Positions 1 through 22,346 are shown, counted from the stretch's first letter. The stretch: 32,000 bases of DNA from Demequinaceae bacterium (GCA_965250005.1 OZ252279.1:1920001-1952000), one strand, 5' to 3'. Notes: generated from the sequence alone by a model not told the origin. A program made the numbers and translations.

Positions 1-1200
1 CTTGGAATTCGCAACGCCGACGGCTCAGACTCTGAGGAGATCAGCCCTCATCGAGTCGACATGGCAGCTGTGAACGCGCGGATCCGCAAGCTCGTCGGGA
101 AGCAAACAGGTGACATTCGCGCGCGTCTTGAGTCCGACGGCGTCAGCATCGTTGAGGGCGAAGGCCGCATGGTGGGGCCTTTCAGTGTCGCGGTCCGGGA
201 CGAGCAGATCGAATCCGACGTCACGCTGCTCGCGCTCGGGGCCAGGCCTCGCGTGCTGCCGGCGGCACTCCCTGACGGCGACCGCATCTTCACCTGGACG
301 CAGCTCTATGAGCTCACGGAGGTCCCCGAGCGGCTGGTGGTGGTCGGCTCAGGCGTGACCGGGGCAGAGTTCGCTGGCGCCTACCAACTTCTCGGCTCCC
401 ATGTCACGCTCGTATCCTCCTCAGATCGCGTTCTGGGAAAGCAGGACCCTGAGGCCGCGCAGTTCATCCAGGACGTCTTCGATGGCCGTGGAATGACGAT
501 GGTGACGGGGTCACATGCCGCGACGGTCGAGAACGTTGGCACGGGGGTCAAAGTCACGTTGGTCGACGGCCGGATCGTCGAGGGCTCGCACTGCCTCATG
601 GCGGTCGGCTCAGTTCCGAATACCGACGGTGTGGGCCTGGAAAACGCGGGTATCGCCGTAGACGAGCACGGGTTCGTTGCGGTGGACCGCGTATCGCGCA
701 CGAGCGTGCGCGGCGTCTACGCCGCCGGTGATTGCACGGGACTACTGCCCCTGGCGTCTGTAGCGGCCATGCAGGGCCGCATAGCGGTTGCTCACGCGCT
801 CGGCGACGCCGTGCAGCCGATCGAACTGTCCCACGTGGCCGCGAACGTCTTCACCACCCCGGAGATCGCGACGGTGGGTGCTACCGAGCAGCAGCTCAAG
901 GATCGAGGCATTTTCTACAAGGTCTCGCGACTGGAGTTCGCGCGCAACCCCCGCGCCAAAATGCTCGGAATTGATCACGGATTCGTGAAGATCTTTGGCC
1001 ACACGGTCACCGGCATGGTGCTGGGTGCGGTGATCGTCGGCCCGCGAGCGGGCGAACACATTTTCCCGTTGGCGCTCGCCGTCACGCACCGTCTTACGGT
1101 CGACGATGTCGCTTCCACATTTACCGTGTACCCGTCGCTCAACGGCACGATCGCTGAGGCCGCGCGTCGGCTGCACAACATGACCGATCCCACGCGCTGA
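1..1200 (+). CDS. FAD-dependent pyridine nucleotide-disulfide oxidoreductase (LpdA-like NAD(P)H dehydrogenase/dihydrolipoyl dehydrogenase family); 5' end cut by window edge
   Basis: Frame 1 is open from base 1, with no stop before the ATG at 61, so the gene starts upstream of the window. It has an NAD-binding GxGxxG (VVVGSGVTGAEFAG), the second FAD motif (GVYAAGDC) and a C-terminal dimerisation region (TVYPSLNGTIAEA). Confidence 0.85.
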   Translation, partial: LGIRNADGSDSEEISPHRVDMAAVNARIRKLVGKQTGDIRARLESDGVSIVEGEGRMVGPFSVAVRDEQIESDVTLLALGARPRVLPAALPDGDRIFTWTQLYELTEVPERLVVVGSGVTGAEFAGAYQLLGSHVTLVSSSDRVLGKQDPEAAQFIQDVFDGRGMTMVTGSHAATVENVGTGVKVTLVDGRIVEGSHCLMAVGSVPNTDGVGLENAGIAVDEHGFVAVDRVSRTSVRGVYAAGDCTGLLPLASVAAMQGRIAVAHALGDAVQPIELSHVAANVFTTPEIATVGATEQQLKDRGIFYKVSRLEFARNPRAKMLGIDHGFVKIFGHTVTGMVLGAVIVGPRAGEHIFPLALAVTHRLTVDDVASTFTVYPSLNGTIAEAARRLHNMTDPTR

Positions 1201-1215
1201 CCCGACACACGAACG

Positions 1216-1255
1216 CAGCAGCGGCGACCGCCCCGAAGAGCTGCCGCCGCTGCTG
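1216..1255. terminator. Candidate bidirectional stem-loop between convergent genes
   Basis: Perfect 11-bp inverted repeat CAGCAGCGGCG (1216-1226) / CGCCGCTGCTG (1245-1255) with an 18-nt loop. It sits in the 66-nt gap between a + gene ending at 1200 and a - gene ending at 1267. There is no U-tract. Confidence 0.45.
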
Positions 1256-1266
1256 AGAAGCAGTTG

Positions 1267-3162
1267 CTAGTTGTCGACAGCCACCGTGAAGCTGAAGCTG
1301 AAGTGATCTGACAGCGGAGAGTCGCCAATCACAAAATCGGTGATGGTGACGCCCTCGTAGAACGCGTAGTCGATCCGCGCGTGGAAGTCGGCACCGTTGT
1401 AGGTGTCCGCCTCGCCAACGAGATCGTCCTGAGCGCTAGCGAACCGCTCGAGCATGAGCTCGATGACTTCGCTCTCGGGGGTGTCGTTGAAGTCGCCAGC
1501 GACCACAGCAGCGGGCGCATCGGACACCTCGGCAAGGAACGCCTCGGCCTGCTCTACGCGCGTCGAGTCGTCGTCCTTGTGCTGCAGGTGGATTGCCGTG
1601 AACTGGATTGGACCCGAAGCCGTTTCGATGCTCGCGACCATCGCCGATCGACCCTGCGGGCCCGTTCCATAAGGAAGCGTGATGCGTTGCACGTCAGTGA
1701 ATTCGTAGCGCGAGAGGATCGCGTTTCCGAACTGGTGGTCGTGGGCGCCTACGTACACGTAGTGCATGTTGAGTGCATCGGCGAGGTACTGGAGTATGTC
1801 TGTTCCGCCAGCGAGGATCCAGCCGCGCGTCACCTCTTGGATCATGACAACGTCGGGGTTCTGGGACGCGATTTCTGCGGCGATCGCATCGAGATCGACG
1901 TCTGGTCCGCCCCCAAGTCCGGGAGTGACGCCGTAGTGAACGTTCCAGGACACCATCTTGAGTTCGCTGGGAAGCCCCGACGGGGCACTCCCGGCTCCGT
2001 TGAATGTCAGCAAGGTGAAGGCGCCAATGAGAACGGAGGCGACCGCCAGGATTCCTGTACGCAGCCGGTACCCGGTGGCTGCCGCGATGAGGGTTCTTGA
2101 TGCCTGTTGAGCGCGCGACCGCACAACTGCTCCTCCAGCGATGGCGAACGCAGAGATCACAATGATCAGCAGATGCGGAATGCCAAGCGGCATGTCGTAG
2201 TCGAGCTGCACGAGCATGAACGGCAGGAGTGCGAGCACGCCGAACGCGGCGGCGGCGCCGAGGAAGCGGGGGCCAGACTTGGCGCCCTCCGCCGCGACGC
2301 TCAGCGCACGGCTGGTCAAATACGTGGTGGTCGCGATGGCAACGGGGGCCATAACAACCAAGACAGCGCCCTGGAAGCTGACGAGCGTCCACACCGCGAG
2401 AACGGCAGTAGCGCCGAGTGCGGCCACCGCTGCCATGGGGAGGTTTGGCATGCGTGCGGCAAGGTACATGCCCGCACCCAAGCCGGTTGCCGACAGCACA
2501 ATTGCGACCCCCAGGTGGAAGCCAGACTGACTTGACATGAACGCGAGGTTTGCAAACGCGAACGCCAGGATCGAGAACCACAGTCCATACGCCCATAGCC
2601 CGCGGACCGGGCGCTCGGAAGTGTCGTTGCGTGTGCGCCAGGCCGTCCACAGGAGAGACGCACACAGGAGCGCAGTGAAGCCGATCGCCAAAATGTCGTC
2701 CCGCCAGATGGCGTCCCACGTGACCAGGATGCCCTGTTCGAGCACCGCGACGATCGCGCCTAGTCCGCTCGCGGCCATGATGGTGGGTGCGCCGCCGGAG
2801 GCGCCGGCACCCCTCACGGCTAGCAGCAGCAGTTCCACTGACATGGCCATGGCGATGAGGCCGTACAGCACCAGGGCTTCGCCCTCAAGGAACGGAAGCA
2901 GGATGCGCAGCACCACAAGCGCCGCGGCCTGCGCGAGGATCACGTTTCCGTGTCCAATGCGTCGGCCAATGAGCGTGGCGAAGTATGCGAGCACGCCTCC
3001 GCCCGCGAACGTGGCGAAGGCGGCGCCAGCCGCGACTTCCACGCCAATGTCGAACAGGTCTGAGATCAGCGGTCCGGCAAAGCGGATCAGGTCAATTGTG
3101 AGCCAGGTGGCGACGGCTACGAGGCCGATTACACGTCTTTGAGTTCCAGTCATGGATGCCAC
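1267..3162 (-). CDS. Polytopic membrane protein with C-terminal endonuclease/exonuclease/phosphatase (EEP) domain
   Basis: 631-aa ORF. The first ~400 aa are hydrophobic with many predicted TM helices. The C-terminal ~230 aa carries EEP signature residues in order: SWNVH, MIQEV, GNAILSR, GDFN, IDY, SDH. The start is GTG 3162 or ATG 3153. Confidence 0.85.
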   Translation of the reverse strand: MASMTGTQRRVIGLVAVATWLTIDLIRFAGPLISDLFDIGVEVAAGAAFATFAGGGVLAYFATLIGRRIGHGNVILAQAAALVVLRILLPFLEGEALVLYGLIAMAMSVELLLLAVRGAGASGGAPTIMAASGLGAIVAVLEQGILVTWDAIWRDDILAIGFTALLCASLLWTAWRTRNDTSERPVRGLWAYGLWFSILAFAFANLAFMSSQSGFHLGVAIVLSATGLGAGMYLAARMPNLPMAAVAALGATAVLAVWTLVSFQGAVLVVMAPVAIATTTYLTSRALSVAAEGAKSGPRFLGAAAAFGVLALLPFMLVQLDYDMPLGIPHLLIIVISAFAIAGGAVVRSRAQQASRTLIAAATGYRLRTGILAVASVLIGAFTLLTFNGAGSAPSGLPSELKMVSWNVHYGVTPGLGGGPDVDLDAIAAEIASQNPDVVMIQEVTRGWILAGGTDILQYLADALNMHYVYVGAHDHQFGNAILSRYEFTDVQRITLPYGTGPQGRSAMVASIETASGPIQFTAIHLQHKDDDSTRVEQAEAFLAEVSDAPAAVVAGDFNDTPESEVIELMLERFASAQDDLVGEADTYNGADFHARIDYAFYEGVTITDFVIGDSPLSDHFSFSFTVAVDN

Positions 3163-9665: not shown

Positions 9666-10538
9666 TTACTTAGTGGTGGCTCGAGCGCGCGGCTGTGGGG
9701 ATGGTGATGCGGTGGTTGCGTCGCCTCGTGCTTCGGACGGCGCAAACGCCACCCGGACGAACAGCACGAGCGTCGGAACCGCGTAGGCCACCCATGCGAT
9801 GGCTTCAAGAATGGTGGTCTGCGGCGAGAAGTTGAAGATTCCCTTGAGCGCGGTGCCGTACCAGGACGAGGATGGCACCTGGGCCGAGACGTCGAACGCG
9901 AGCGTGTTCAGCCCCGGCAGGACGCCCGCCTCCTGGAAGTCGTGGATGCCATACGCGAGCACGCCGGCCGCGACGATCACGAGGAAGACGCCAGTCCATT
10001 GAAAGAACTTGGCGAGGTTGATGCGCAGCGCGCCGCGGTAGATGAGGTAGCCCAGGACCACGGCGGTCGCGAGACCAAGGACGGCGCCGGCGATGGGCGC
10101 CGTGCTGCTGCCTGCGGCGGAGATCCCGGCCCACACGAAAAGTGACGTTTCGATGCCCTCGCGCCCGACGGCTACGAACGCGACCACGGCGATCGCGCCG
10201 GTGCCTACGGCGGCTGCGGCGTCTAGGGCGGTCTCCAGTTTTTCGCGAAGAAAGCGCGCCGTCTTGCCCATCCAGAAAATCATCCACGTCACCAGTGCTA
10301 CGGCGACGATGCTCATCGATCCGCCGATGATCTCCTGCGCCTCGAAGCTGAGGCCCCGCGGTCCCCACGTGAGGAGGGCCCCGAGTCCGAGCGAAATCCC
10401 AATGGCGGCCCACGTTCCGAGCCAAACGCCGCGCAGCTGCTGGCGGCGGTCGGAGCGCACCAGGTAGGCGACAAGTATGCCGATAACGAGCGCTGCCTCA
10501 AGGCCTTCGCGAAGGCCGATCAGGTAGTTCGCCATCAT
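9666..10538 (-). CDS. efeU: FTR1/EfeU family high-affinity iron permease
   Basis: 290-aa polytopic ORF with two RExxE iron-binding motifs (REGLEAAL near the N-terminus, REGIETSL mid-protein). A GGAG RBS lies upstream of ATG 10538. Confidence 0.9.
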   Translation of the reverse strand: MMANYLIGLREGLEAALVIGILVAYLVRSDRRQQLRGVWLGTWAAIGISLGLGALLTWGPRGLSFEAQEIIGGSMSIVAVALVTWMIFWMGKTARFLREKLETALDAAAAVGTGAIAVVAFVAVGREGIETSLFVWAGISAAGSSTAPIAGAVLGLATAVVLGYLIYRGALRINLAKFFQWTGVFLVIVAAGVLAYGIHDFQEAGVLPGLNTLAFDVSAQVPSSSWYGTALKGIFNFSPQTTILEAIAWVAYAVPTLVLFVRVAFAPSEARGDATTASPSPQPRARATTK

Positions 10539-10559
10539 GGTCCGGGCTCCTCAGAACGG

Positions 10560-10601
10560 GTTAGTGAGGCAAACCTAACCTGGGCCGTGGGGACTTGTCA
10601 A
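10560..10601 (-). promoter_or_regulatory. Candidate efeU promoter with overlapping DtxR/IdeR-like operator
   Basis: On the minus strand, TTGACA (10601-10596) is followed by an 18-nt spacer and TAGGTT (10577-10572). The 19-mer TTAGGTTTGCCTCACTAAC (10578-10560) matches the DtxR/IdeR consensus at 13 of 19 positions and overlaps the -10. GGTTAG/CTAACC arms are also present. Confidence 0.35.
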
Positions 10602-10660
10602 AAATACGGAACCATGGTGTTGCGTAATTCGTGGCCGGAGGCGCAAGCCGCGCACGGCGC

Positions 10661-10897
10661 CTAGCGCAGCGAGTGGCGAAACGCTGCGTCGCCGCGGCTC
10701 AGTGCGACTGCCCGGCGGCCGCGCATGGTGCGCGACCTGTCCATCCACGCCGACGTGGGAGAGCCGGGCTCTTCGTCTTCGTCGATGGCAGATGTGTACG
10801 CGACCATCCCCGCCACAAGCGCTGCGAGCTCGGCCTCGTCCGGGGTGCCGCGCACCACGCGCAGGCCGCCGGCGTGGGGATCTCTGAGTGGGCTCAC
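10661..10897 (-). CDS. accE: Acyl-CoA carboxylase epsilon subunit
   Basis: 78-aa ORF with the [19 protein letters not shown] motif typical of actinobacterial AccE. The GTG start overlaps the accD stop (GTGA). Confidence 0.8.
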
Positions 10898-12510
10898 AGG
10901 GGGATGTTCCCATGCTTCTTGGGCGGAAGTGACGCCCGCTTGGATCGCAGCGCGCGGAGCGCCTTGACCACGTGGGCTCGGGTCTCGGCGGGCTCGATCA
11001 CGGCGTCGACGTACCCGCGGTCGGCCGCGTCGTACGGATTGACGATTGTCTCCTCGTACTCCTCGGTGAGGCGACTGCGTTCCGCCTCGACATCGCCGCC
11101 TTCGTCAGCGATTGCCGCGAGCGCCCGCCGCTGCAGGATGTTGACGGCTCCGCCCGCGCCCATCACGGCAATCTGCGCGGTGGGCCAGGCGAGGTTGACG
11201 TCCGCGCCCAACTGCTTGGACGCCATGACGATGTACGCGCCGCCGTACGCCTTGCGTGTGATGACGGTGACTAGAGGGACGGTGGCCTCGGCGTATGCGT
11301 AGATCAGTTTGGCGCCGCGGCGGATGATGCCCTGGTGCTCCTGGTCCGTTCCCGGCAGGAAGCCAGGGACGTCCACGAAGGTGAGAACGGGGATGTTGAA
11401 CGCGTCGCACGTGCGCACGAACCTCGCCGCTTTCTCTGCCGCGTTGATGTCGAGTGTGCCCGCCATGGACTGCGGCTGGTTTGCGACGATGCCGACGGAG
11501 TGGCCCTCAACGTGGCCGAAACCAACCACAATGTTTTGCGCGTACAGCGGCTGGACCTCGAAGAACTCGCCGTCGTCCAAGACGGCCTCGATCACCGTCT
11601 TCATGTCGTACGCCTGGTTGTCACTGTCCGGGACAACAGAATTCAGCGCTTTATCCCCGTCGGTGTGCTCGAGGTCAGCCTCGTGCTCCCAAATGGGGGG
11701 ATCGCTCAGGTTGTTCTGGGGGAGAAACTGGAGGAGGTGTTTGACGTAATCGATTGCGTCGTCCTCGTCGCTTGCGAGATAGTGCGCGACACCAGACTTG
11801 GAGTTGTGGGTAGCGCCGCCACCCAGCTCCTCGAACGTGACCTCTTCACCGGTGACCGATTTGATGACGTCGGGACCGGTGATGAACATCTGGGAGGTGC
11901 CGTCGGCCATGATGATGAAGTCCGTGAGTGCCGGCGAATAGACAGCGCCACCTGCGGACGGGCCCAGAATGATTGAGATCTGTGGGATTACGCCGGAGGC
12001 CGCGACGTTGCGGCGGAAAATCTCCGCGAACTGCGTAAGAGCGGCCACGCCCTCCTGGATGCGCGCGCCTCCGCCGTCGGAGATGCCGATGAGAGGGACG
12101 CCCGTGCGCAGGGCGAAGTCCTGGATCTTGGCGATCTTCGCGCCGTGAACCTCCCCGAGGGAACCCCCGAAGAGTGTGAAGTCTTGTGAGTAGACGGCCA
12201 CCTGGCGGCCGTCAATTGTTCCGTACCCCACCACTACGCCGTCCCCGTATGGGCGATTCTTCTCGAGCCCAAAGTTGGTGGAGCGGTGGCGCGCGAGTGC
12301 GTCGATCTCGGTGAACGAGCCCTCGTCGAGGAGCGCGTCTACGCGCTCGCGGGCGGTCTGCTTTCCGCGGGCGTGCTGCTTCTCCGACTTGGCGGCCTCG
12401 GGTCCCGTGACGGCCAGATCCACGCGCGATTGCAGGGCGTCGCGCGCGCCTTTGGTGGACTTGCTGGCGGGCTTGACCGCTTTGGCGGCTTTGGTCTTTT
12501 TGGTGCTCAC
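10894..12510 (-). CDS. accD: Acyl-CoA carboxylase beta subunit (carboxyltransferase, AccD5/PccB type)
   Basis: 538-aa ORF with both carboxyltransferase halves ([12 protein letters not shown]..., GGARIQEG, ...[11 protein letters not shown]). A GGAGG RBS precedes GTG 12510. Confidence 0.95.
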
Positions 12511-12548
12511 AACAGGAAACCTCCTAGAACTAGACGTAGCCTATCCGG

Positions 12549-13424
12549 ATGAGCAATGAACCTGGCCAAACCGGCGCCCAAACTGAGACCGCGTCTCGGG
12601 CACCCCTAGACGCGGTCGCTTTGATGGAGGAGCTTAGCGGGCCACGCGGGCCGCTCTCCCAGATCAGCGTGGTGCCGTTCTCGGAATCCACGAACACTGC
12701 CGTGGTGGAAGCGCTCGATATCGATGGCCAAGGCTGGCCGCACTTGTCAGCGCTGGTCGCCGACCATCAAACCTCCGGCCGCGGTCGGAGCGGGCGCACC
12801 TGGGATACACTCCAGGGCGCCGCGCTGACCGTTACCTTCGTGCTCCGCCCCACGGGAATCGCCCACGCGAGTTACGGGTGGGCGCCGCTGGTCGTTGGCC
12901 TTGGTGTGATCAGGGCACTGGCGGCATTTGGCGTTGAGGCGCGACTCAAGTGGCCCAACGACGTTGTCATTGAATTCTCTAGCGCCGATGCGGTGCCGGG
13001 CTGGGGTACTAACCGCAAAGTCGCGGGAATCCTGTGCGAGGTTGTGGGCCAGGCAATCGTCGCGGGCATTGGCATCAATGTGTCTCAGATTGAGTCCGAA
13101 CTTCCGGTGCCGCACGCTACCTCCCTTCTCGAGGCGGGTGCCGATAGCGCCGCAAGGGGCACGTTGCTTGGCGTGCTCGCTGGCGAAATCCGCGATGCCG
13201 TATCGAATTGGGAGCGGGATACGGGTGTTCAATCCGTAGCGCGGCAGGTCGCGGACGCGTGCGACACGATCGGTCGGGATGTTGTCGTTGACATTCCGGG
13301 AGGCGCGCCTGTGACGGGCCGCGCTACCGGGCTCTCAGAGGACGGCGGGCTGCTAGTCGATGTTGGGGAGCCTGAGCCGCGCGTGATTCTCGCGGGCGAC
13401 GTGCGGGTGCGCGCCCGAGGCTAG
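12549..13424 (+). CDS. birA: Biotin--[acetyl-CoA-carboxylase] ligase (group I, no N-terminal HTH)
   Basis: 291-aa ORF with the biotin-binding signature GRGRSGRTW and KWPND. It is divergent from accD with only a 38-nt spacer. Confidence 0.9.
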   Translation: MSNEPGQTGAQTETASRAPLDAVALMEELSGPRGPLSQISVVPFSESTNTAVVEALDIDGQGWPHLSALVADHQTSGRGRSGRTWDTLQGAALTVTFVLRPTGIAHASYGWAPLVVGLGVIRALAAFGVEARLKWPNDVVIEFSSADAVPGWGTNRKVAGILCEVVGQAIVAGIGINVSQIESELPVPHATSLLEAGADSAARGTLLGVLAGEIRDAVSNWERDTGVQSVARQVADACDTIGRDVVVDIPGGAPVTGRATGLSEDGGLLVDVGEPEPRVILAGDVRVRARG

Positions 13425-13554
13425 GATTCGTCCGGAATATAGACGCTAACGGTGTGAATATTCCAACGCTTCCCTTTCCGGACAAATCGCAGTTGTCGTG
13501 GCAACATGTGATGTGTGGGCCGTGACGGCGGACTGCGAGATGCAAAGGAGTTTC

Positions 13555-13929
13555 ATGAGCGCGCAACCGGTGAGTAGGGTCCCCAGATTTGGGGAAGAGG
13601 ACTTCCTCCCCAATCGCCGAGCCATGGCGGCGCTACCGCTCACGGTCATGTACTGGGCGCTCATCTTCACTGTCGTATTCTTCGCCACCCGCGACTTTGA
13701 TTTTGAGGACTCGGTCGCTGCATCTGGGTACATCGGTGCCCTGCTCATCACGTTCATGATGATCATTTTCTTCATCATTCCGTCTGCGCTGGCTGGCGGC
13801 CTTGCTCGCCTCACGATCGAGCCCGCTTTGCGCAATGACAAACTTCGAAATGCCGCCCTCACGTTCACTGGCATCGTCGTGGTGGGCTCGCTTTCGATTG
13901 GGTGGGCCGTCTTTACTGGAGGGCTCTAA
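13555..13929 (+). CDS. Small integral membrane protein, unknown function
   Basis: I prefer ATG 13555, which has an AAGGAG RBS 4 nt upstream, over the GTG at 13498. This gives 124 aa with three hydrophobic helices. By hand count on 13621-13800 the G+C is ~57%, lower than in neighbouring genes. Confidence 0.7.
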   Translation: MSAQPVSRVPRFGEEDFLPNRRAMAALPLTVMYWALIFTVVFFATRDFDFEDSVAASGYIGALLITFMMIIFFIIPSALAGGLARLTIEPALRNDKLRNAALTFTGIVVVGSLSIGWAVFTGGL

Positions 13930-14555
13930 TGGCCCAGATAACGCGCGCAGGCAGAGAGTTGCTTGGGGAAATATCGGTTGCGCTGCGCGGCGAGGATCTC
14001 GCGGGACGTTTCCCCACGGTCGCCAAGGTAGTTGGGCCGCAGACGCACCGCGCGTGGGCCGCCGCAGCGATGGGCATCGCCATATTCTCCGTCCTGTTCT
14101 GGGCTGCGACGGCCGCGGGGAAAGGGCGGTTGGAGCTTTCCGAGGACGCGGAGTTGGGGTCGTATCCCAACCTCGTAGTTATCTCGTACTTCGCCGTCAC
14201 GGTGATACTCGCCCCACTTGTCGCGCAGACTGTAGGCGCCTGGCTGGAAAACTGGAGCGCGCGCCTGCAGAAGGACGACTCCGTGCTGCTGTTTATTGCG
14301 CTCGGGCTGGTGCTTGCAGTCCCCCCGACGCTGCTAATCGCCTTTGCCGCGCCAGAGGGATTCGCGATCGGCCCTGCGGTATGGCTCTTTGGGGCGCCCG
14401 TTGTGCTCGCGACGTCGATCACACGCGGTTACCTGGACGCGGTGCTGCGCCGCCCCCGCTATGTGAGTGCCGTTGTGAGCCTCGCGGTGCTCCCACCCGT
14501 GATCGTGGTCCTTTTCCTGCTCGGCCTCTATGTGGCGCAGGGCTCCCAAGCTTAG
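13929..14555 (+). CDS. Integral membrane protein, unknown function
   Basis: ATG 13929 overlaps the upstream TAA (TAATG), giving 208 aa with about five hydrophobic helices. No motif was recognised. Confidence 0.7.
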   Translation: MAQITRAGRELLGEISVALRGEDLAGRFPTVAKVVGPQTHRAWAAAAMGIAIFSVLFWAATAAGKGRLELSEDAELGSYPNLVVISYFAVTVILAPLVAQTVGAWLENWSARLQKDDSVLLFIALGLVLAVPPTLLIAFAAPEGFAIGPAVWLFGAPVVLATSITRGYLDAVLRRPRYVSAVVSLAVLPPVIVVLFLLGLYVAQGSQA

Positions 14556-14571: not shown

Positions 14572-15273
14572 CTAGCTGGCTGGCTCGATTAGCCCGGCGT
14601 GGTTGTTGCGCACATTGCCCACGTCTCCGCCCACGCGCGTCACGTCCATTGGGGGTGGCGTGGACGCGATTACCACCTGCAGCTCGTCTGGATCGCTCTC
14701 CACGTCGAGCCACGCGTCGCGCGCATCGGCCCCGAGCATTACGGGCACGCGGTCGTGGATCCGCGCCATGTCCCCCATCGCCTGTGCCGTGAGGATGCTG
14801 AAGGTCACCAGGGCATCGTCGCCCTGATCCGGCCAGAACTCGTACAGCCCGGCGAAGGCGACGGGCGTGCCGTCTGCGGCGTGAATGAAGTACGGCTGTT
14901 TGCCGTCCGGGTGCTTCTGCCATTCGTAGTAGCCGTTCGCGGGGACCAGGCAGCGGCGGCGCTTGTACGCGCTGCGGAACGACGGCTTCTGTGCAACCGT
15001 CTCCCAGCGCGCGTTGAACATTCTGGAGCCGATGCTCCGGTCCTTGGCCCACGAGGGGACGAGGCCTCAGCGAGCGGTTTGGAGGCACCGGGTGCCCGCC
15101 GGGGAGTGGGAGGCTCCCTCGAGCGCCACCGCTGGGACGATGATTCTGGCCGACTGGGCGGGCGCGATGTTCCAGGACGGTGGGAGCAGGCGGGCGTCGT
15201 CTGCCGCAGATGTGATCGCAAACGTGTATTCGAGTTCGCGCTGCTCCAGGAAGTCTGCGAATCTGCCACACAT
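14572..15273 (-). pseudogene. SOS response-associated peptidase (SRAP/YedK/HMCES family) interrupted by one in-frame TGA
   Basis: Two ORFs in the same frame (15273-15067 and 15021-14572). The first begins MCGRF, with the catalytic Cys2 of SRAP. Reading through the stop at 15069-15067 gives ...TAR*GLVPSWAKD...NARWETV...RRCLVPANGYYEW, i.e. TGA where the family has the Trp of 'RWGLVPSW'. Confidence 0.85.
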
Positions 15274-15443: not shown

Positions 15444-18185
15444 ATGACTCCGTCCGGGCGCTCGCGGGCAGGTGCGACCACCGTCATCCTCCTTGCGTTC
15501 GTCGGCGTGATTTTGTTTGGGCCCCTTGGCTATTTGCTCGGGAATCGCACGCATTCCGACGCGGGAGTTCAACCGCCCCGCTATTCGACCGAGGTGGCGG
15601 TCGTGACTGTGCTGCCGGGTGCACCATCCGAAGGCGAGCGGACCTACTCTGTCGACGTCGCGGCCGCAGGCCTGATCGCAGAGGTCATCCTGCTCGCTGC
15701 TGGCGAAGAGGTCGCGCGCCTGGAGCCGGATGGCAACCCGCAGGTGCTTCGCACGGCATTCGCCACGGCGGCCGAGGGGCCGATCGGGGCGGTCGTCGTC
15801 CTTGTTGACGGACGAACCTCGGAGTCGCCCACGGTTTCGACGCGGTCGCAGTCCACGGATTTCGAAGCGCGCCTGGGCAACGACGGAGTGCAGCGGGACA
15901 CCGAGGCCGGGCTGGTTGACGCCAACCCCGACGAGCTGCCGATTCTGCGGCCCCGGCTCGCGACGGCCGTGAACTGGGAGGGACCAGCCCGGATTGTCGG
16001 CGGGCTACTCCAGGTCGATGATCCCGGGGTTTCGCGAGTTTTCGCCTACGTCTCGGGTGACGGAGTCGATTGGCACCGCATCCCAGCCGGGGCGGGCGAG
16101 TCGCTCGCACTTGTGGATGGGGTCGCGGATGTAGCAGGGCGCCTACCCGCGCTCGCGTCGCGGTCTCTGACGGTCGAATTGTGGCGTGACGACACTGAGG
16201 TCAACCACCTGGGGTTTGCGACGGCCACGTTGCCCGCCGATCTCGAGACGGCGAGCGCGATGACGGAGATCGGGCTGACTGGCCGGCTCGAGCTCGGATT
16301 CGTGGCTCAAGGTGCCTTCGGCCGAGGCGCGGAAGTACTCGTGGAGTCTGCCGTGTTACCGTCCGTGGACGCGGCGGACGAAATGTACTTCCGCTGGCAG
16401 ACCGACATCCCGGGCGTGACCCACGTGCTGTGGCAGGCGTTCCCCAACTCGCCCGCGATCATCGGGCCGCCCAGTCCGACAGACCTGGGGGTCGCGAGGT
16501 CGGGAATCTCGGAGGTGAGTTCTGGCGGACTCTTCCGGTTCGTTCCGCCCGATCGTGACCAGAGTGCGGTGTCGTCCGGGGATCCCACTGATGGCACCGC
16601 GGCAATCTCGCAGTGGATGCTCAACCCCACCCGCACGGCCGGACAGGTCGTCGCCGACGGCCCTCTGGCCAATGCGCTACCGCTGGGCGGCGCAATTCCG
16701 CTACCCAAAGACGGCGTGACTTCTTGGACGGTGCGCGCGCTGGCCTTTTCGGGTGACGAGTACCTCGACATCGCTTCGAACCCCGTTGTGGTGCGCCTCC
16801 CAATTCTCGAGTGGTCGGGACTCCTACTTCCGACCACGAACTACACGATCGCCGCCTCGGCGGATTCGGTGGCCGCAGTCGACCCACGTTGGCAGCGATG
16901 TTTCGATGTTGTTGGCATCGATCCAACGGTACGCGCGGATGCGGAAAACTCCAGCCCCGAGGCTGCGCTGCAATACGCGATCCTTGATTCCCTTCTGACG
17001 CATGGGTCTGTGCTGTGCCTGAACGTTTGCTACCACGCGAGCGTGAGCTCAGACCTTCTCTTGGCGGCGTACCCGGGATTCTCAGCAGCGGGGGTCAGCG
17101 CAGGAGGGCAAACGAACATCAAGATCGCGACCGGCACCGCGACGTGTGATTCTGGCGGCGGCTTCCTCGATGTCGTCGGCGCTTTCGGGACGGCCGTATG
17201 GGAAGTAGCGGGTGTGGGGTACGACCTCGTGGAGTCCACGTACAACGGCGCCGTGAAACTCGTGAAGAAGGCCGTTCTGGAGCTGTCCGGGTGCAAGCAG
17301 CTCGCGGGAGCGGTCGCCGACCAGTCGGACGCGGACAGCCTTTGCGCGGCCGCCGCGAGCATCGCTGTCGACGCGGCGCTGATGTCGGTGGGGCTCCCGC
17401 CCTCGCTACCGGACCGCGAGAAGTTGATTCAGAACGCGAAGGGTGATCTGGCCGCGTTACTCGTTCAACTAGCCACCGACCAGGGTGTGCCGTGCGAGGA
17501 GCTTGCCGCCGCGTCGGATGTGATCGACACCAAGGGGCTTACTTGTGAGCAGATCGCCGACAAGATTGTCGAGGAAGCCTCCGAGCAGCTCGCCGACGCG
17601 GTGCGCGCGAACGCGCGGAACCAGGGAATGCCGTTCCCACCCGGCGTCTCGGTCATCCAGGACACGCGCGCCACACCTGACCTGCTCCCGGTGACGATCA
17701 CCACGATCGCCGAGTCGGATCTTCCACCCGGGCGGACGTGTGACGCGCAAGTTCACGCCTTCGTGAAGTGGACGCCATCGGCGCATCCATCGGTCCCGTT
17801 CGTTGGGGCGCTTTACGCCGAGCCAAGGCCGTTTGCGCTAGCTGGCTCCGCCCCGTGGGCCATCCCATACCGTGAATACGTTGGCGCCTATCGCGCTCAA
17901 GGCCTGCGGCTCGCGCGGCCTGCTGCCGGTGAGACTACCGCCAGCACCACGGTCTATCTCGAATTGGCTGGTGGCGCGTTCCAGGATGTCGTCGCGTTCC
18001 GTGATCGGCCGTCGCCTTTCGCAGGCGCGGATCCAATCCGCGATCAGTGGAACGTAGCGGGCGACGTTGTGCTTCAGCGGCCCGGCGCGAAGATCAATGT
18101 GACCGTGGTCAGTGACTGTGCTGGCCTAGCGTTCGCGGATACGACGGTCCACTTCGGCTCGCTGTTTCCCGGAGGTACCGGGTGA
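15444..18185 (+). CDS. Large N-terminally membrane-anchored extracytoplasmic protein, unknown family
   Basis: 913-aa ORF with a single N-terminal TM (TTVILLAFVGVILFGPLGYLL). The N-terminal ~480 aa looks beta-rich and has no Cys. The C-terminal ~430 aa contains all 10 Cys and a helical Ala/Leu-rich segment. The stop overlaps the next start (GTGA). Confidence 0.8.
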   Translation: MTPSGRSRAGATTVILLAFVGVILFGPLGYLLGNRTHSDAGVQPPRYSTEVAVVTVLPGAPSEGERTYSVDVAAAGLIAEVILLAAGEEVARLEPDGNPQVLRTAFATAAEGPIGAVVVLVDGRTSESPTVSTRSQSTDFEARLGNDGVQRDTEAGLVDANPDELPILRPRLATAVNWEGPARIVGGLLQVDDPGVSRVFAYVSGDGVDWHRIPAGAGESLALVDGVADVAGRLPALASRSLTVELWRDDTEVNHLGFATATLPADLETASAMTEIGLTGRLELGFVAQGAFGRGAEVLVESAVLPSVDAADEMYFRWQTDIPGVTHVLWQAFPNSPAIIGPPSPTDLGVARSGISEVSSGGLFRFVPPDRDQSAVSSGDPTDGTAAISQWMLNPTRTAGQVVADGPLANALPLGGAIPLPKDGVTSWTVRALAFSGDEYLDIASNPVVVRLPILEWSGLLLPTTNYTIAASADSVAAVDPRWQRCFDVVGIDPTVRADAENSSPEAALQYAILDSLLTHGSVLCLNVCYHASVSSDLLLAAYPGFSAAGVSAGGQTNIKIATGTATCDSGGGFLDVVGAFGTAVWEVAGVGYDLVESTYNGAVKLVKKAVLELSGCKQLAGAVADQSDADSLCAAAASIAVDAALMSVGLPPSLPDREKLIQNAKGDLAALLVQLATDQGVPCEELAAASDVIDTKGLTCEQIADKIVEEASEQLADAVRANARNQGMPFPPGVSVIQDTRATPDLLPVTITTIAESDLPPGRTCDAQVHAFVKWTPSAHPSVPFVGALYAEPRPFALAGSAPWAIPYREYVGAYRAQGLRLARPAAGETTASTTVYLELAGGAFQDVVAFRDRPSPFAGADPIRDQWNVAGDVVLQRPGAKINVTVVSDCAGLAFADTTVHFGSLFPGGTG

Positions 18186-18946
18186 AGGTGCTAGCTGCCA
18201 TTGCGGTCGCCGCCGTGTCGCTCGGCGCCGGGGTAGGAGGGTGGATTCTTGGCGACGCACGATCAGCCCCCCCGGATGTGTCCGTGCACGGGCCGATGGC
18301 CTGGATCGACAACCCGCACGACGGCGACGCGTACCCGACTGGTCGGCATGTCGCGAACACGCACGCGGCTGCCCAGGACGGGATTGTCCAAATGGTATTC
18401 ACCGTCAACTCGGACCTTCAGGCGAAGGCTCTCGAGGGCGGGACGATCGAGAACGTCGACTGGTCCTTTGATGTGGACGAGCCTGGCGAATACACGTTGA
18501 CGGTGTGGGGAGTAACAGCTGGTGGTGAGGAGACGCCTTCATCCTCCGTAGTCATCATCGTGTTCGATCCGGACGCGCTTATCGCGACAGAAGTGGTGTC
18601 GGGACCGGAACCCGAGCCGGAACCCGAACCTGGGCCGTGCAGGCCATCGGCACCCAGTATCTCGCACCCGGATGACGGCGGTATTCCAGCGGAAGAGGGC
18701 GGGCCCGGATCGGCGCCGCTGGTGTGGTCTCAGCAGGGGTCGTGCGACGCGGAGGAGTGGCGAGTGGAGGTGGCGATCGACTCTGGATTCACAGACTTCT
18801 TGGAGAAGACGTCGCTTTCGGGTGAGGTCACGTCCCACTACGTCTACGGGCTTTCGTGTGAGACGTGGTACTGGCGCATACGGGGAGTCCGGGACGGCAC
18901 GACGGGACCGTGGGCGGTGCGGTCGTTCACCGTCGTCGACTGCTGA
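18182..18946 (+). CDS. Membrane-anchored/secreted two-domain protein (Ig-like + FN3-like) with PEPEPEPEP linker, unknown function
   Basis: 254-aa ORF with an N-terminal hydrophobic anchor or signal. It has a beta-sandwich-like module (EYTLTVWGVTAGGEE), a PEPEPEPEPGP linker, then a module ending YWRIRGVRDGTTGPWAVRSFTV, reminiscent of FN3. It contains four Cys. Confidence 0.8.
   Translation: MKVLAAIAVAAVSLGAGVGGWILGDARSAPPDVSVHGPMAWIDNPHDGDAYPTGRHVANTHAAAQDGIVQMVFTVNSDLQAKALEGGTIENVDWSFDVDEPGEYTLTVWGVTAGGEETPSSSVVIIVFDPDALIATEVVSGPEPEPEPEPGPCRPSAPSISHPDDGGIPAEEGGPGSAPLVWSQQGSCDAEEWRVEVAIDSGFTDFLEKTSLSGEVTSHYVYGLSCETWYWRIRGVRDGTTGPWAVRSFTVVDC
18605..18628 (+). repeat. Two tandem 12-nt units encoding the Pro-Glu linker
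   Basis: CCGGAACCCGAG (18605-18616) is followed directly by CCGGAACCCGAA (18617-18628), inside the 254-aa ORF. Confidence 0.6.
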
Positions 18947-19137
18947 GCAAGACCAACCCGCGCCTTGGTGCAGCCTGGCGGCCGGAAATTGTGCCGCGGC
19001 AGCTTCATCGCCCACGCGGACAATCGTCGTATTTCGCCCACGCGATACTGGAACGCCGCACGTCCTGGGATCCGGCGGCACTTTCAGTTATCCACACTCA
19101 CCAAGCGGGATTTGCGCTTCACCCCTAGTCTCCCAAC

Positions 19138-20367
19138 ATGACTGCCGAAGCGGTCGCGCACATTGAGAACCAGGTGCGCGACCTGATTCGTAAGCGTGGC
19201 GTGGACCCAACGAGGGACGCCGCGGCCGTTGAGGCGCTCGTTGACGAGGCGCTTCAGGATTGGGAGGAGCGCGCGCTTGTGGGCGCAGTGGCGCCCATGG
19301 ATGACCGTAGCGCGGCCGCCAAGTCCGTCCTGGACTCTGTGGCCGGACTTGGCCCGTTGCAGCAATACATGGACGATCCAGTCGTCGAGGAAATCTGGAT
19401 AAACGAACCCGCGCAGGTGTTCGTCGCGCGCGGCGGCGAGCCCGAACTGACCAACACGATCCTGACCGCTGAGCAGGTACGTGATTTGGTTGAGCAGATG
19501 CTGAAGTCCTCGGGCCGGCGGCTCGACCTGTCGAGCCCGTTCGTTGATGCGGCGCTCGCCGGTGGGGAGCGGCTGCACGTGGTGATCCCCGACGTCACGC
19601 GTGAGCACTGGGCTGTAAACATCCGCAAGTACGTTGCGCGCGCGGGCACGGTGGACGACTTGGTGACACTCGGTTCCTTGCCGCAGACAGCCGCCGACTT
19701 CATGGCCGCCTCGGTCGCGGCGGGACTCAATATCTTGATCGCGGGGGCGACGCAGGCGGGTAAGACTACAGCGCTGAACGCGCTCGCGGGCTCGATTCCG
19801 CCGCGCGAGCGGGTGGTGACGTGCGAGGAAGTCTTCGAACTCAAGATCCCCCAGCGCGATGTCGTCTCGCTCCAATGCCGTCAACCAAGCCTCGAGGGAA
19901 GCGGCGAGATCCCCTTACGCCGTTTGGTCAAGGAGGCGTTACGTATGCGTCCATCGCGAATCATCATTGGCGAGGTTCGTGAGGCCGAGGCGCTCGACAT
20001 GCTCGTTGCTCTCAACGCGGGCGTACCGGGAATGTGCACAATCCATGCGAACTCTGCGCGAGATGCCGTCACCAAAATGTGTACGTTGCCGTTGCTCGCA
20101 GGGGACAACGTTTCCGATCGGTTCGTGATCCCGACAGTCGCATCCGCCATCGACATCGTCATGCACCTTGAACTAGATGCTGCGGGCAAGCGTCGCGTAA
20201 CGGAGATCGTCGGCGTCACGGGACGCGTCGAAGGCGGCGTCATCGAGGTCTCTGACCTATTCCGGCTTAAGCGCGGCCGACTTGTGCGCGGAGACGGATT
20301 TCCCCCGCACCCAGATCGCTACGAGCGCATCGGCGCGGACCTGCCGGCTCTCCTTGGAGGTTCCTAA
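19138..20367 (+). CDS. tadA: Tad/Flp pilus assembly ATPase (CpaF/TadA family)
   Basis: 409-aa ORF with Walker A (GATQAGKTTALNAL), Walker B-like (RIIIGEVR) and His box (MCTIHANS). Its length and N-terminus are typical of actinobacterial TadA. Confidence 0.92.
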   Translation: MTAEAVAHIENQVRDLIRKRGVDPTRDAAAVEALVDEALQDWEERALVGAVAPMDDRSAAAKSVLDSVAGLGPLQQYMDDPVVEEIWINEPAQVFVARGGEPELTNTILTAEQVRDLVEQMLKSSGRRLDLSSPFVDAALAGGERLHVVIPDVTREHWAVNIRKYVARAGTVDDLVTLGSLPQTAADFMAASVAAGLNILIAGATQAGKTTALNALAGSIPPRERVVTCEEVFELKIPQRDVVSLQCRQPSLEGSGEIPLRRLVKEALRMRPSRIIIGEVREAEALDMLVALNAGVPGMCTIHANSARDAVTKMCTLPLLAGDNVSDRFVIPTVASAIDIVMHLELDAAGKRRVTEIVGVTGRVEGGVIEVSDLFRLKRGRLVRGDGFPPHPDRYERIGADLPALLGGS

Positions 20368-22160: not shown

Positions 22161-22346
22161 ATGACCCGCATCCTTGCTGCGCTCGCGCATCGCTGGCGAC
22201 TTCGATCCTCGGACGACGGTGACGTGCCCGGATGGGTCCTCATCACGTTGATGACAGCTGGCCTAGTCGCCGCCATTTGGGCCGTTGCCGGCCCGGCATT
22301 GACCAACCTGTTTAGTTCAGCCATTGAAAGCGTCTCAGGAAGCTAA
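22161..22346 (+). CDS. Small pilin-like protein in the Flp position (DUF4244-like placement)
   Basis: 61-aa ORF with an AAGGAG RBS. It has a charged leader followed by a single hydrophobic helix (PGWVLITLMTAGLVAAIWAVAG). It sits directly after tadC, where flp lies in actinobacterial tad loci. No canonical G/XXXXEY motif is present. Confidence 0.55.
   Translation: MTRILAALAHRWRLRSSDDGDVPGWVLITLMTAGLVAAIWAVAGPALTNLFSSAIESVSGS

Follow-up and report, generated by a model that had tools for sequence, protein, structure and literature searches.

Two coupled genes upstream of tadA in a Demequinaceae bacterium probably form an autonomous cassette for anchored extracytoplasmic proteins

TadZ, or CpaE, is the cytoplasmic FleN/ParA-type protein of Tad pilus systems (PMC6668835). 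Micrococcus luteus has functional Tad/Flp pili and no TadZ orthologue; in rod-shaped cells, the authors of that study relate TadZ to polar localisation (PMC4322843). Here we analyse a stretch of 32,000 nucleotides from a Demequinaceae bacterium (GCA_965250005.1 OZ252279.1:1920001-1952000; the window in the following), in which two coupled genes directly precede tadA. A first-pass annotation of the window had placed these genes in the slot of TadZ and had proposed a pilus-associated adhesin, an anchor or an assembly factor, with an unrelated surface complex as a hedged alternative. It is this alternative which our data favour. We suggest, at a probability of roughly 60 %, that the pair is an autonomous, conserved two-gene cassette of monoderm bacteria which is independent of tad and encodes an anchored extracytoplasmic 1:1 complex, stabilised by disulfides and situated in the wall zone. 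The position beside tadA is most simply explained as an accident of local gene order, and the pair would then be neither a Tad component nor a replacement of TadZ.

The larger gene (15444..18185, plus strand) starts with ATG and codes for a protein of 913 amino acids, predicted to be a membrane-anchored ectoprotein. The smaller gene (18182..18946, plus strand) starts with GTG and codes for 254 amino acids. Both genes overlap in the tetranucleotide GTGA at 18182..18185, where the GTG start codon (18182-18184) is interlaced with the TGA stop codon (18183-18185), an arrangement which points to translational coupling. A spacer of 191 nt (18947..19137) separates the pair from tadA, which lies on the same strand and has its ATG at 19138. 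In all these points the sequence agrees with the first-pass annotation. The GC content by codon position is coding-like (0.70/0.52/0.76 in the large and 0.66/0.53/0.75 in the small open reading frame (ORF), in a window of about 65 % GC) and the best homologues are found with E values of 6e-128 for the large protein (HMMER) and 1e-37 for the small protein (tblastn). Thus, both ORFs are real genes and not chance ORFs. Since the SRAP/YedK gene upstream is encoded on the opposite strand, the pair heads a co-directional block.

We compared 12 independent loci which carry homologues (L001-L004, L009, L010, L011/L012, L013/L014, L015/L016, L017, L018 and L019), together about 185 kb, with about 10 kb covered on each side of each homologue. 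The loci stem from a Nitriliruptorales metagenome-assembled genome (L002), from a Chloroflexia metagenome-assembled genome and from metagenome or assembly contigs; L001 and L003 are of the Chloroflexia type. In 12 of 12 loci a homologue of the small partner is adjacent to the large gene. The stop and start codons overlap by 4 nt in L001, L003, L010, L013/L014 and L019, by 8 nt in L004 and by 13 nt in L015. In a single subclade, which comprises the proteins P0009 and P0015, the gene order is swapped and the small gene comes first (L011/L012, at 89-4271 of L011, and L017, at about 9790-13235). That the pairing is kept despite the swap is a strong argument for a functional, and probably physical, partnership. 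By contrast to the faithful partner, the remaining gene content varies between the loci, and tadA, tadB, tadC, flp and tadE were found in none of the 12 loci (tblastn, E up to 1e-2). The precomputed Pfam lists of the neighbours at these loci likewise contain no T2SSE and no T2SSF. A survey of gene neighbourhoods had been suggested with the first-pass annotation as a check of its pilus proposal. With the partner in 12 and tad genes in 0 of 12 loci, the survey speaks against a pilus-associated adhesin, anchor or assembly factor in the TadZ slot.

The idea of a lineage-specific Tad accessory draws on the window itself. It holds that the pair is co-transcribed with tadA-tadC-flp-tadE and might render TadZ dispensable, be it as a conduit through the wall, as an anchor or as a positioning factor. 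The short distance to tadA on a common strand is in line with this, and the divergent SRAP gene upstream means that the pair could head the transcription unit. When we scanned the 191-nt spacer we recognised neither a terminator-like hairpin nor a sigma-70-type promoter; the RNA fold of the spacer is no more stable than that of shuffled sequence (z = +0.96), and an Rfam search of the window gave zero matches. Also, the window has no TadZ-like gene, as had been noted before: comparison of every sizeable ORF with Pfam revealed no gene of the ParA/MinD (TadZ/CpaE) type in the 32 kb, and a six-frame search for Walker A motifs found only two, in TadA and in FeoB. An ectoprotein could, however, not stand in for TadZ, because TadZ is a cytoplasmic ParA-like ATPase. 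Moreover, the missing TadZ needs no substitute, because the Tad pili of M. luteus function without a TadZ orthologue, and without any such pair having been described (PMC4322843). The N-termini of the close homologues share no pilin-like G/xxxxE motif in the family alignment, and we found no TadE, Tad, RcpC or SAF domain in the two proteins. In addition, the pair was picked for its neighbouring tad genes, and something must neighbour tad. Together with the 12 homologous loci, these points make a Tad accessory very improbable, and it is very unlikely that the pair is a stand-in for the missing TadZ. We also see only a slim chance that the pair has been co-opted in this lineage and is transcribed from a promoter upstream of 15444, so that its extracytoplasmic products help a Tad pilus without TadZ to cross the wall or to be positioned. 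If such a co-option were true, it would add a new type of accessory to the Tad systems of monoderms.

The tad genes of the window, all on the plus strand, are readily recognised. The product of tadA (19138-20367) matches T2SSE with an E value of 2.5e-35 and has its best NCBIfam match in TIGR03819, the actinobacterial TadA type. Two T2SSF matches downstream correspond to tadB and tadC. Between tadC and tadE lies an ORF of 61 amino acids (22161-22346) whose product is Flp-like and includes the sequence DDGDVPGWVLITLMTAGLVAAIW; it has no NCBIfam match, and a G/xxxxEY processing motif is not obvious. Pfam identifies a TadE gene, which together with two more ORFs of the TadE/G type extends the block to 23679.

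Neither protein of the pair scores above threshold in Pfam, NCBIfam, PHROGs or PADLOC, and the relatives likewise have no family assigned, so that the earlier statement that no family is recognisable holds. A word-indexed homologue search returned almost nothing. Only an exhaustive HMMER scan of 1.84 billion representative proteins with the large protein as query revealed the family, with 140 matches at E <=1e-3, 51 at <=1e-10 and 12 at <=1e-30. Most relatives are 900-1100 amino acids long and the majority of the matches align at query residues 560-780, the best-conserved region. The closest homologues share 33-40 % identity with the query across its full length, and one among them carries the annotation 'hypothetical protein [Nitriliruptorales bacterium]'. 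Recurrent motifs of the family are PGVTHxxWQ, G[IL]PPSLP, AKGDL and TCE. The protein from the window has all the family traits, that is, the anchor, the sandwich region with PGVTHxxWQ, seven conserved cysteines and the G[IL]PPSLP, AKGDL and TCE motifs. In 80 members scanned against Pfam the recurrent domains are only Big_7, LysM and other immunoglobulin-like (Ig-like) modules, and none of these 80 proteins has an enzymatic domain. The family profile, when compared with the sequences in the PDB, matches only FN3-like, bacterial Ig and LysM chains. The LysM matches fall at profile positions 154-217 and are also seen in individual relatives; at the equivalent place the window protein has a disordered linker. 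Large and small proteins represent a rare family which no database annotates and which combines familiar Ig-like, FN3-like and, in relatives, LysM modules with an unassigned conserved core.

A distant relative of 719 amino acids, P0143 (L005-L008), is found with a profile E value of 4e-11 and covers 14 % of the query. Its gene lies directly downstream of genes for an extracytoplasmic function (ECF) sigma factor and a 998-amino acid Ser/Thr kinase with tetratricopeptide repeats, and it has no detectable small partner. P0143 may be a different architecture on the same core and we treat it as too distant to inform on function.

The large protein begins with a signal-anchor (residues 11-33; 15474..15542), which is preceded by RSR. 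AlphaFold2 (AF2) predicts a helix at residues 8-31, the mean Kyte-Doolittle hydropathy exceeds 1.9 and the predicted topology is N-in/C-out. It is followed by a first Ig-like beta-sandwich (residues 52-127; 15597..15824), seen in AF2 strands with a predicted local distance difference test score (pLDDT) of 77-95, and by the linker (residues 134-172; 15843..15959), which is modelled with low confidence (pLDDT 30-46) and in larger relatives gives way to the LysM domain at the same position. Family-specific beta-sandwich modules occupy residues 177-366 and 427-475 (15972..16868) according to the AF2 secondary structure, with an insert predicted as disordered between them at residues 372-423. In this region the columns W178, G180, R212, P214, W247 and W318 are conserved, as is the motif PGVTHVLWQ, which worked as a search pattern for relatives. 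An alpha/beta domain (residues 486-562; 16899..17129) contains Cys 486, 525 and 529 and reaches a pLDDT of 84-95 in a model of the C-terminal half. The Ala/Leu-rich helical core (residues 591-726; 17214..17621) shows the strongest conservation within the family; it is apparent from composition and hydropathy, is helical in both AF2 models and harbours Cys 617, 634, 684 and 701, the motifs G[IL]PPSLP, AKGDL and TCE and a hydrophobic helix at about 630-650. The protein ends with a further beta-sandwich (residues 735-903; 17646..18152; pLDDT about 80-95), in which Cys 766 and 892 are conserved. All these features lie on the plus strand. The full-length AF2 model, calculated from an alignment of 30 sequences, has a mean pLDDT of 69.7 and a predicted template modelling score (pTM) of 0.41. 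Its layout matches the N-terminal beta-sandwich modules and the helical C-terminal core which had been read from the sequence before.

The distribution of the cysteines is also as previously described. The N-terminal half is free of them and all ten are found between residues 486 and 892 (486, 525, 529, 568, 617, 634, 684, 701, 766 and 892). C486 is invariant, and C486, C617, C634, C684, C701, C766 and C892 recur across the family alignments; these seven are present in at least 87 % of the homologues which cover them. Among the homologues C525 and C529 are either both kept or both lost, a pattern as expected of disulfide partners. A saposin-like reading of the nested cysteine pattern was considered as well, but we did not adopt it.

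For both proteins the first-pass annotation had assumed a single N-terminal hydrophobic anchor. Both anchors are indeed present, but a further hydrophobic stretch occurs in the large protein at residues of about 630-650 (17331-17393), within the conserved helical core. Its 19-residue Kyte-Doolittle mean of 1.6-1.9 is above the usual transmembrane threshold. Conservation across the family peaks in this hydrophobic helix, AAAASIAVDAALMSVGL, and in the invariant GLPPSLP motif which follows it. The helix may be buried, or it may form a re-entrant segment or a lipid-binding element.

The small protein repeats the theme on a smaller scale. Its anchor (residues 3-24; 18188-18253) is evident from sequence and hydropathy and, by translation, is followed by an Ig-like domain (residues 38-126; 18293-18559), the linker GPEPEPEPEPGP (residues 141-152; 18602-18637) and an FN3-like domain with four cysteines (residues 153-254; 18638-18943), all on the plus strand. 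The cysteines are residues 153, 188, 226 and 254. When the small partners of L002, L003 and L004 are aligned with the window protein, all four fall into invariant or clearly matching columns. This layout of anchor, Ig-like domain, proline-rich spacer and FN3-like domain with four conserved cysteines is common to the small partners and agrees with the earlier description of the protein. The spacer has 12 residues in the window protein, whereas the Pro/Thr/Ser linker of relatives can reach a length of about 80. With Pfam, the window protein gives a weak, sub-threshold match to Big_7 (E 0.032); the precomputed annotation of the L018 and L019 partners includes Big_7, and weak matches to Ig_Rha78A_N occur in homologues of the small protein. 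An hhalign comparison of the small-partner profile with the profile of the large family indicates homology between the Ig domain of the small protein and the first one of the large protein, with 91.6 % probability and an E value of 8e-7.

Does the pair have a catalytic function? A motif search for HExxH, GDS[LI], LPxTG, Walker A and CGEQ was negative throughout, in agreement with the first-pass annotation, which had noted the absence of a catalytic motif, of a nucleotide-binding loop, of LPXTG and of a lipobox. We rejected a sortase substrate since LPxTG is absent, and a lipoprotein since the only string of the type L[AS][GA]C, LSGC at residue 614, is internal and an N-terminal lipobox is lacking. 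With no catalytic motif in the window proteins and no enzymatic domain in the 80 family members, a structural, binding or scaffolding role appears likelier than catalysis.

We nevertheless considered that a novel cysteine-dependent core might serve, outside the cytoplasm, as an enzyme or to trap or inhibit proteases. The protein would then be a distant, membrane-anchored analogue of the bacterial alpha-2-macroglobulins (A2M) or a peptidoglycan-remodelling factor. A Foldseek search of the PDB with the full-length model ranks complement C5, TEP1, CD109, A2ML1 and the Salmonella alpha-2-macroglobulin at the top, with E values from 8e-9 to 1e-4. A membrane-anchored array of beta-sandwiches which encloses a helical domain close to its C-terminal end is of this kind, too, and the several invariant cysteines as well as the LysM domains of relatives would suit such a function. 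The template modelling (TM) scores of these matches are, however, only about 0.1 at root-mean-square deviations above 30 Å, and SiiE, LILRB and FN3 arrays score similarly, as is typical for generic macroglobulin (MG)- or FN3-like repeats. The C-terminal half alone has no significant match in the PDB or in BFVD and none to a thioester domain; the best PDB matches are weakly arrestin-like or Ig-like with E values of 1e-3 or worse. Furthermore, the helical part has only about 135 residues, compared with about 300 residues of a thioester domain. As neither the CGEQ motif nor a Pfam match to A2M or TED was found, we rejected an identity with alpha-2-macroglobulin or complement and attribute the similarity to the arrays of beta-sandwiches in general. 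Also with a view to the missing enzymatic domains, we regard an enzyme or a protease trap as improbable.

The neighbours at the homologous loci are varied. Beside the pair we find a Mrp antiporter in L009 and dnaE, rhomboid, lspA, ileS and DivIVA genes in L015. L004 has an AbiE toxin-antitoxin system and a LuxR-type response regulator with a GerE domain (1160-2038, minus strand), two genes away from the pair. Large divergent regulators of the LuxR/GerE family adjoin the pair in L013 (4957-7803, minus strand) and L018 (1227-4952, minus strand), one of them with an AAA_16 domain. A LuxR/GerE-type gene near the pair may therefore be a recurrent regulator. In the locus of the closest homologue, L002 (5300-9142), genes for a DsbD_TM (CcdA-like) protein, a thioredoxin-fold protein and an MMPL transporter precede the pair on the same strand, and purN is a further neighbour. 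The DsbD_TM and thioredoxin-fold genes are redox-related and lie here beside a gene for a cysteine-rich ectoprotein; this is a single occurrence. In L019 (1143-11625) an M48 peptidase is encoded upstream of the pair, and the gene downstream codes for an RHS/YD-shell protein of 1628 amino acids which contains a VWD domain. The ends of these four genes overlap or abut and they may form one operon.

Such regulators could mean that the pair is a regulated module for envelope stress or surface sensing under a LuxR-type or ECF regulator, which binds an external ligand or lipid through a disulfide-clamped hydrophobic core. Besides the regulators in L013, L018 and L004, L017 has ECF sigma factor genes near the pair, and one such gene is found next to that of the distant relative P0143. 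The hydrophobic helix 630-650 moreover lies among the near-invariant Cys 617, 634, 684 and 701. On the other hand, the pair lacks an adjoining regulator in the window as well as in L002, L009, L010 and L015, and the proteins have no recognisable ligand-binding domain. Because their cytoplasmic tails comprise about 10 residues or fewer, the two proteins cannot signal alone. We therefore think that a sensing module is quite unlikely.

How might the autonomous cassette work? Both proteins could insert into the membrane in the N-in/C-out orientation by way of uncleaved signal-anchors, and their homologous membrane-proximal Ig domains would pair with each other. The large protein would project further beta-sandwiches and a cysteine-rich head of alpha/beta, helical and beta-sandwich domains, and the small protein would carry its FN3-like domain on the proline-rich spacer. 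In many relatives LysM would bind peptidoglycan and so hold the large protein at the wall, which the spacer would be long enough to cross. We infer the topology, the disulfides, the heterodimerisation with its Ig-Ig pairing and the association with the wall; for the last we extrapolate from the LysM-bearing relatives and the long proline-rich spacers. The claim of the first-pass annotation that both proteins are anchored and extracytoplasmic is upheld by the predicted topology.

Several points weigh against this reading. The comparison of loci is confined to the neighbourhoods of the homologues, and as even the nearest homologue is only 40 % identical it rests on distant relatives. Co-transcription with the tad genes is possible, given the same strand and no detectable terminator before tadA. 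The helical core has a low pLDDT in both AF2 models (37-77), its hydrophobic helix may imply a different topology or a function at the membrane, and the invariant cysteines may include a catalytic residue instead of all forming disulfides. Pfam finds no LysM domain in the window protein, so that binding to the wall is extrapolated from relatives.

Two further features lie upstream. The SRAP/YedK gene (14572-15273, minus strand) is broken up, with its two parts lying in separate ORFs and in different frames. The first (15273-15067, 68 amino acids) starts with MCGRF and corresponds to profile positions 1-46, and the second (15021-14572, 149 amino acids) to positions 76-214. The gene is either a frameshifted pseudogene or affected by a sequencing error. 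Between birA and the SRAP gene, at 13498-14555 on the plus strand, two overlapping ORFs code for hydrophobic proteins with only weak matches to DUF6814 and HsmA.

The locus opens no long-standing question and overturns no expectation of specialists. It rather counsels caution in the annotation of Tad loci, as finding an uncharacterised long gene in place of TadZ is no evidence that the pilus has a novel component. The conserved cysteine-rich core, which matches neither a family nor a solved structure, would merit attention in structural genomics and in work on the cell envelope of monoderms.

In comparison with known systems, the pair resembles TadZ/CpaE only by its position directly upstream of tadA on the same strand. 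The pair has no P-loop and no match to CbiA, ParA or AAA_31, and its homologues are unlinked to tad. Where TadZ is cytoplasmic, the two proteins have signal-anchors with very short N-terminal tails, Ig- and FN3-like ectodomains and an even number of conserved cysteines and are predicted to be extracytoplasmic. With RcpC/CpaB and TadE, TadF and TadG the pair has in common that a small anchored beta-rich protein is encoded beside Tad genes. We rejected RcpC/CpaB, as Pfam gives no SAF or RcpC match at E up to 0.1 and the homologues are not linked to tad, and also a TadE/TadF/TadG pseudopilin, as matches to TadE (PF07811) or Tad (PF13400) are missing, unlike in the genuine genes downstream. The likeness to A2M, complement C3-C5 and TEP proteins, which is one of generic beta-sandwich repeats, may extend to arrays of MG- or FN3-like sandwiches, a helical domain near the C-terminus and, for bacterial A2M, a membrane-anchored extracytoplasmic location; the large protein is, however, about half their size and lacks the thioester motif and any match to the thioester domain. 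From the Big_7/LysM/FN3 surface proteins of monoderms the family differs by its conserved core without a Pfam model or a significant fold match in the PDB and by the obligatory two-gene arrangement, which is not known for them, and the window protein also by its lack of LysM. What the pair shares with these surface proteins is an N-terminal anchor followed by Ig-like modules, with Big_7 or LysM in many family members, and, in the small partner, a proline-rich linker of the wall-spanning type which leads to a terminal FN3-like domain.

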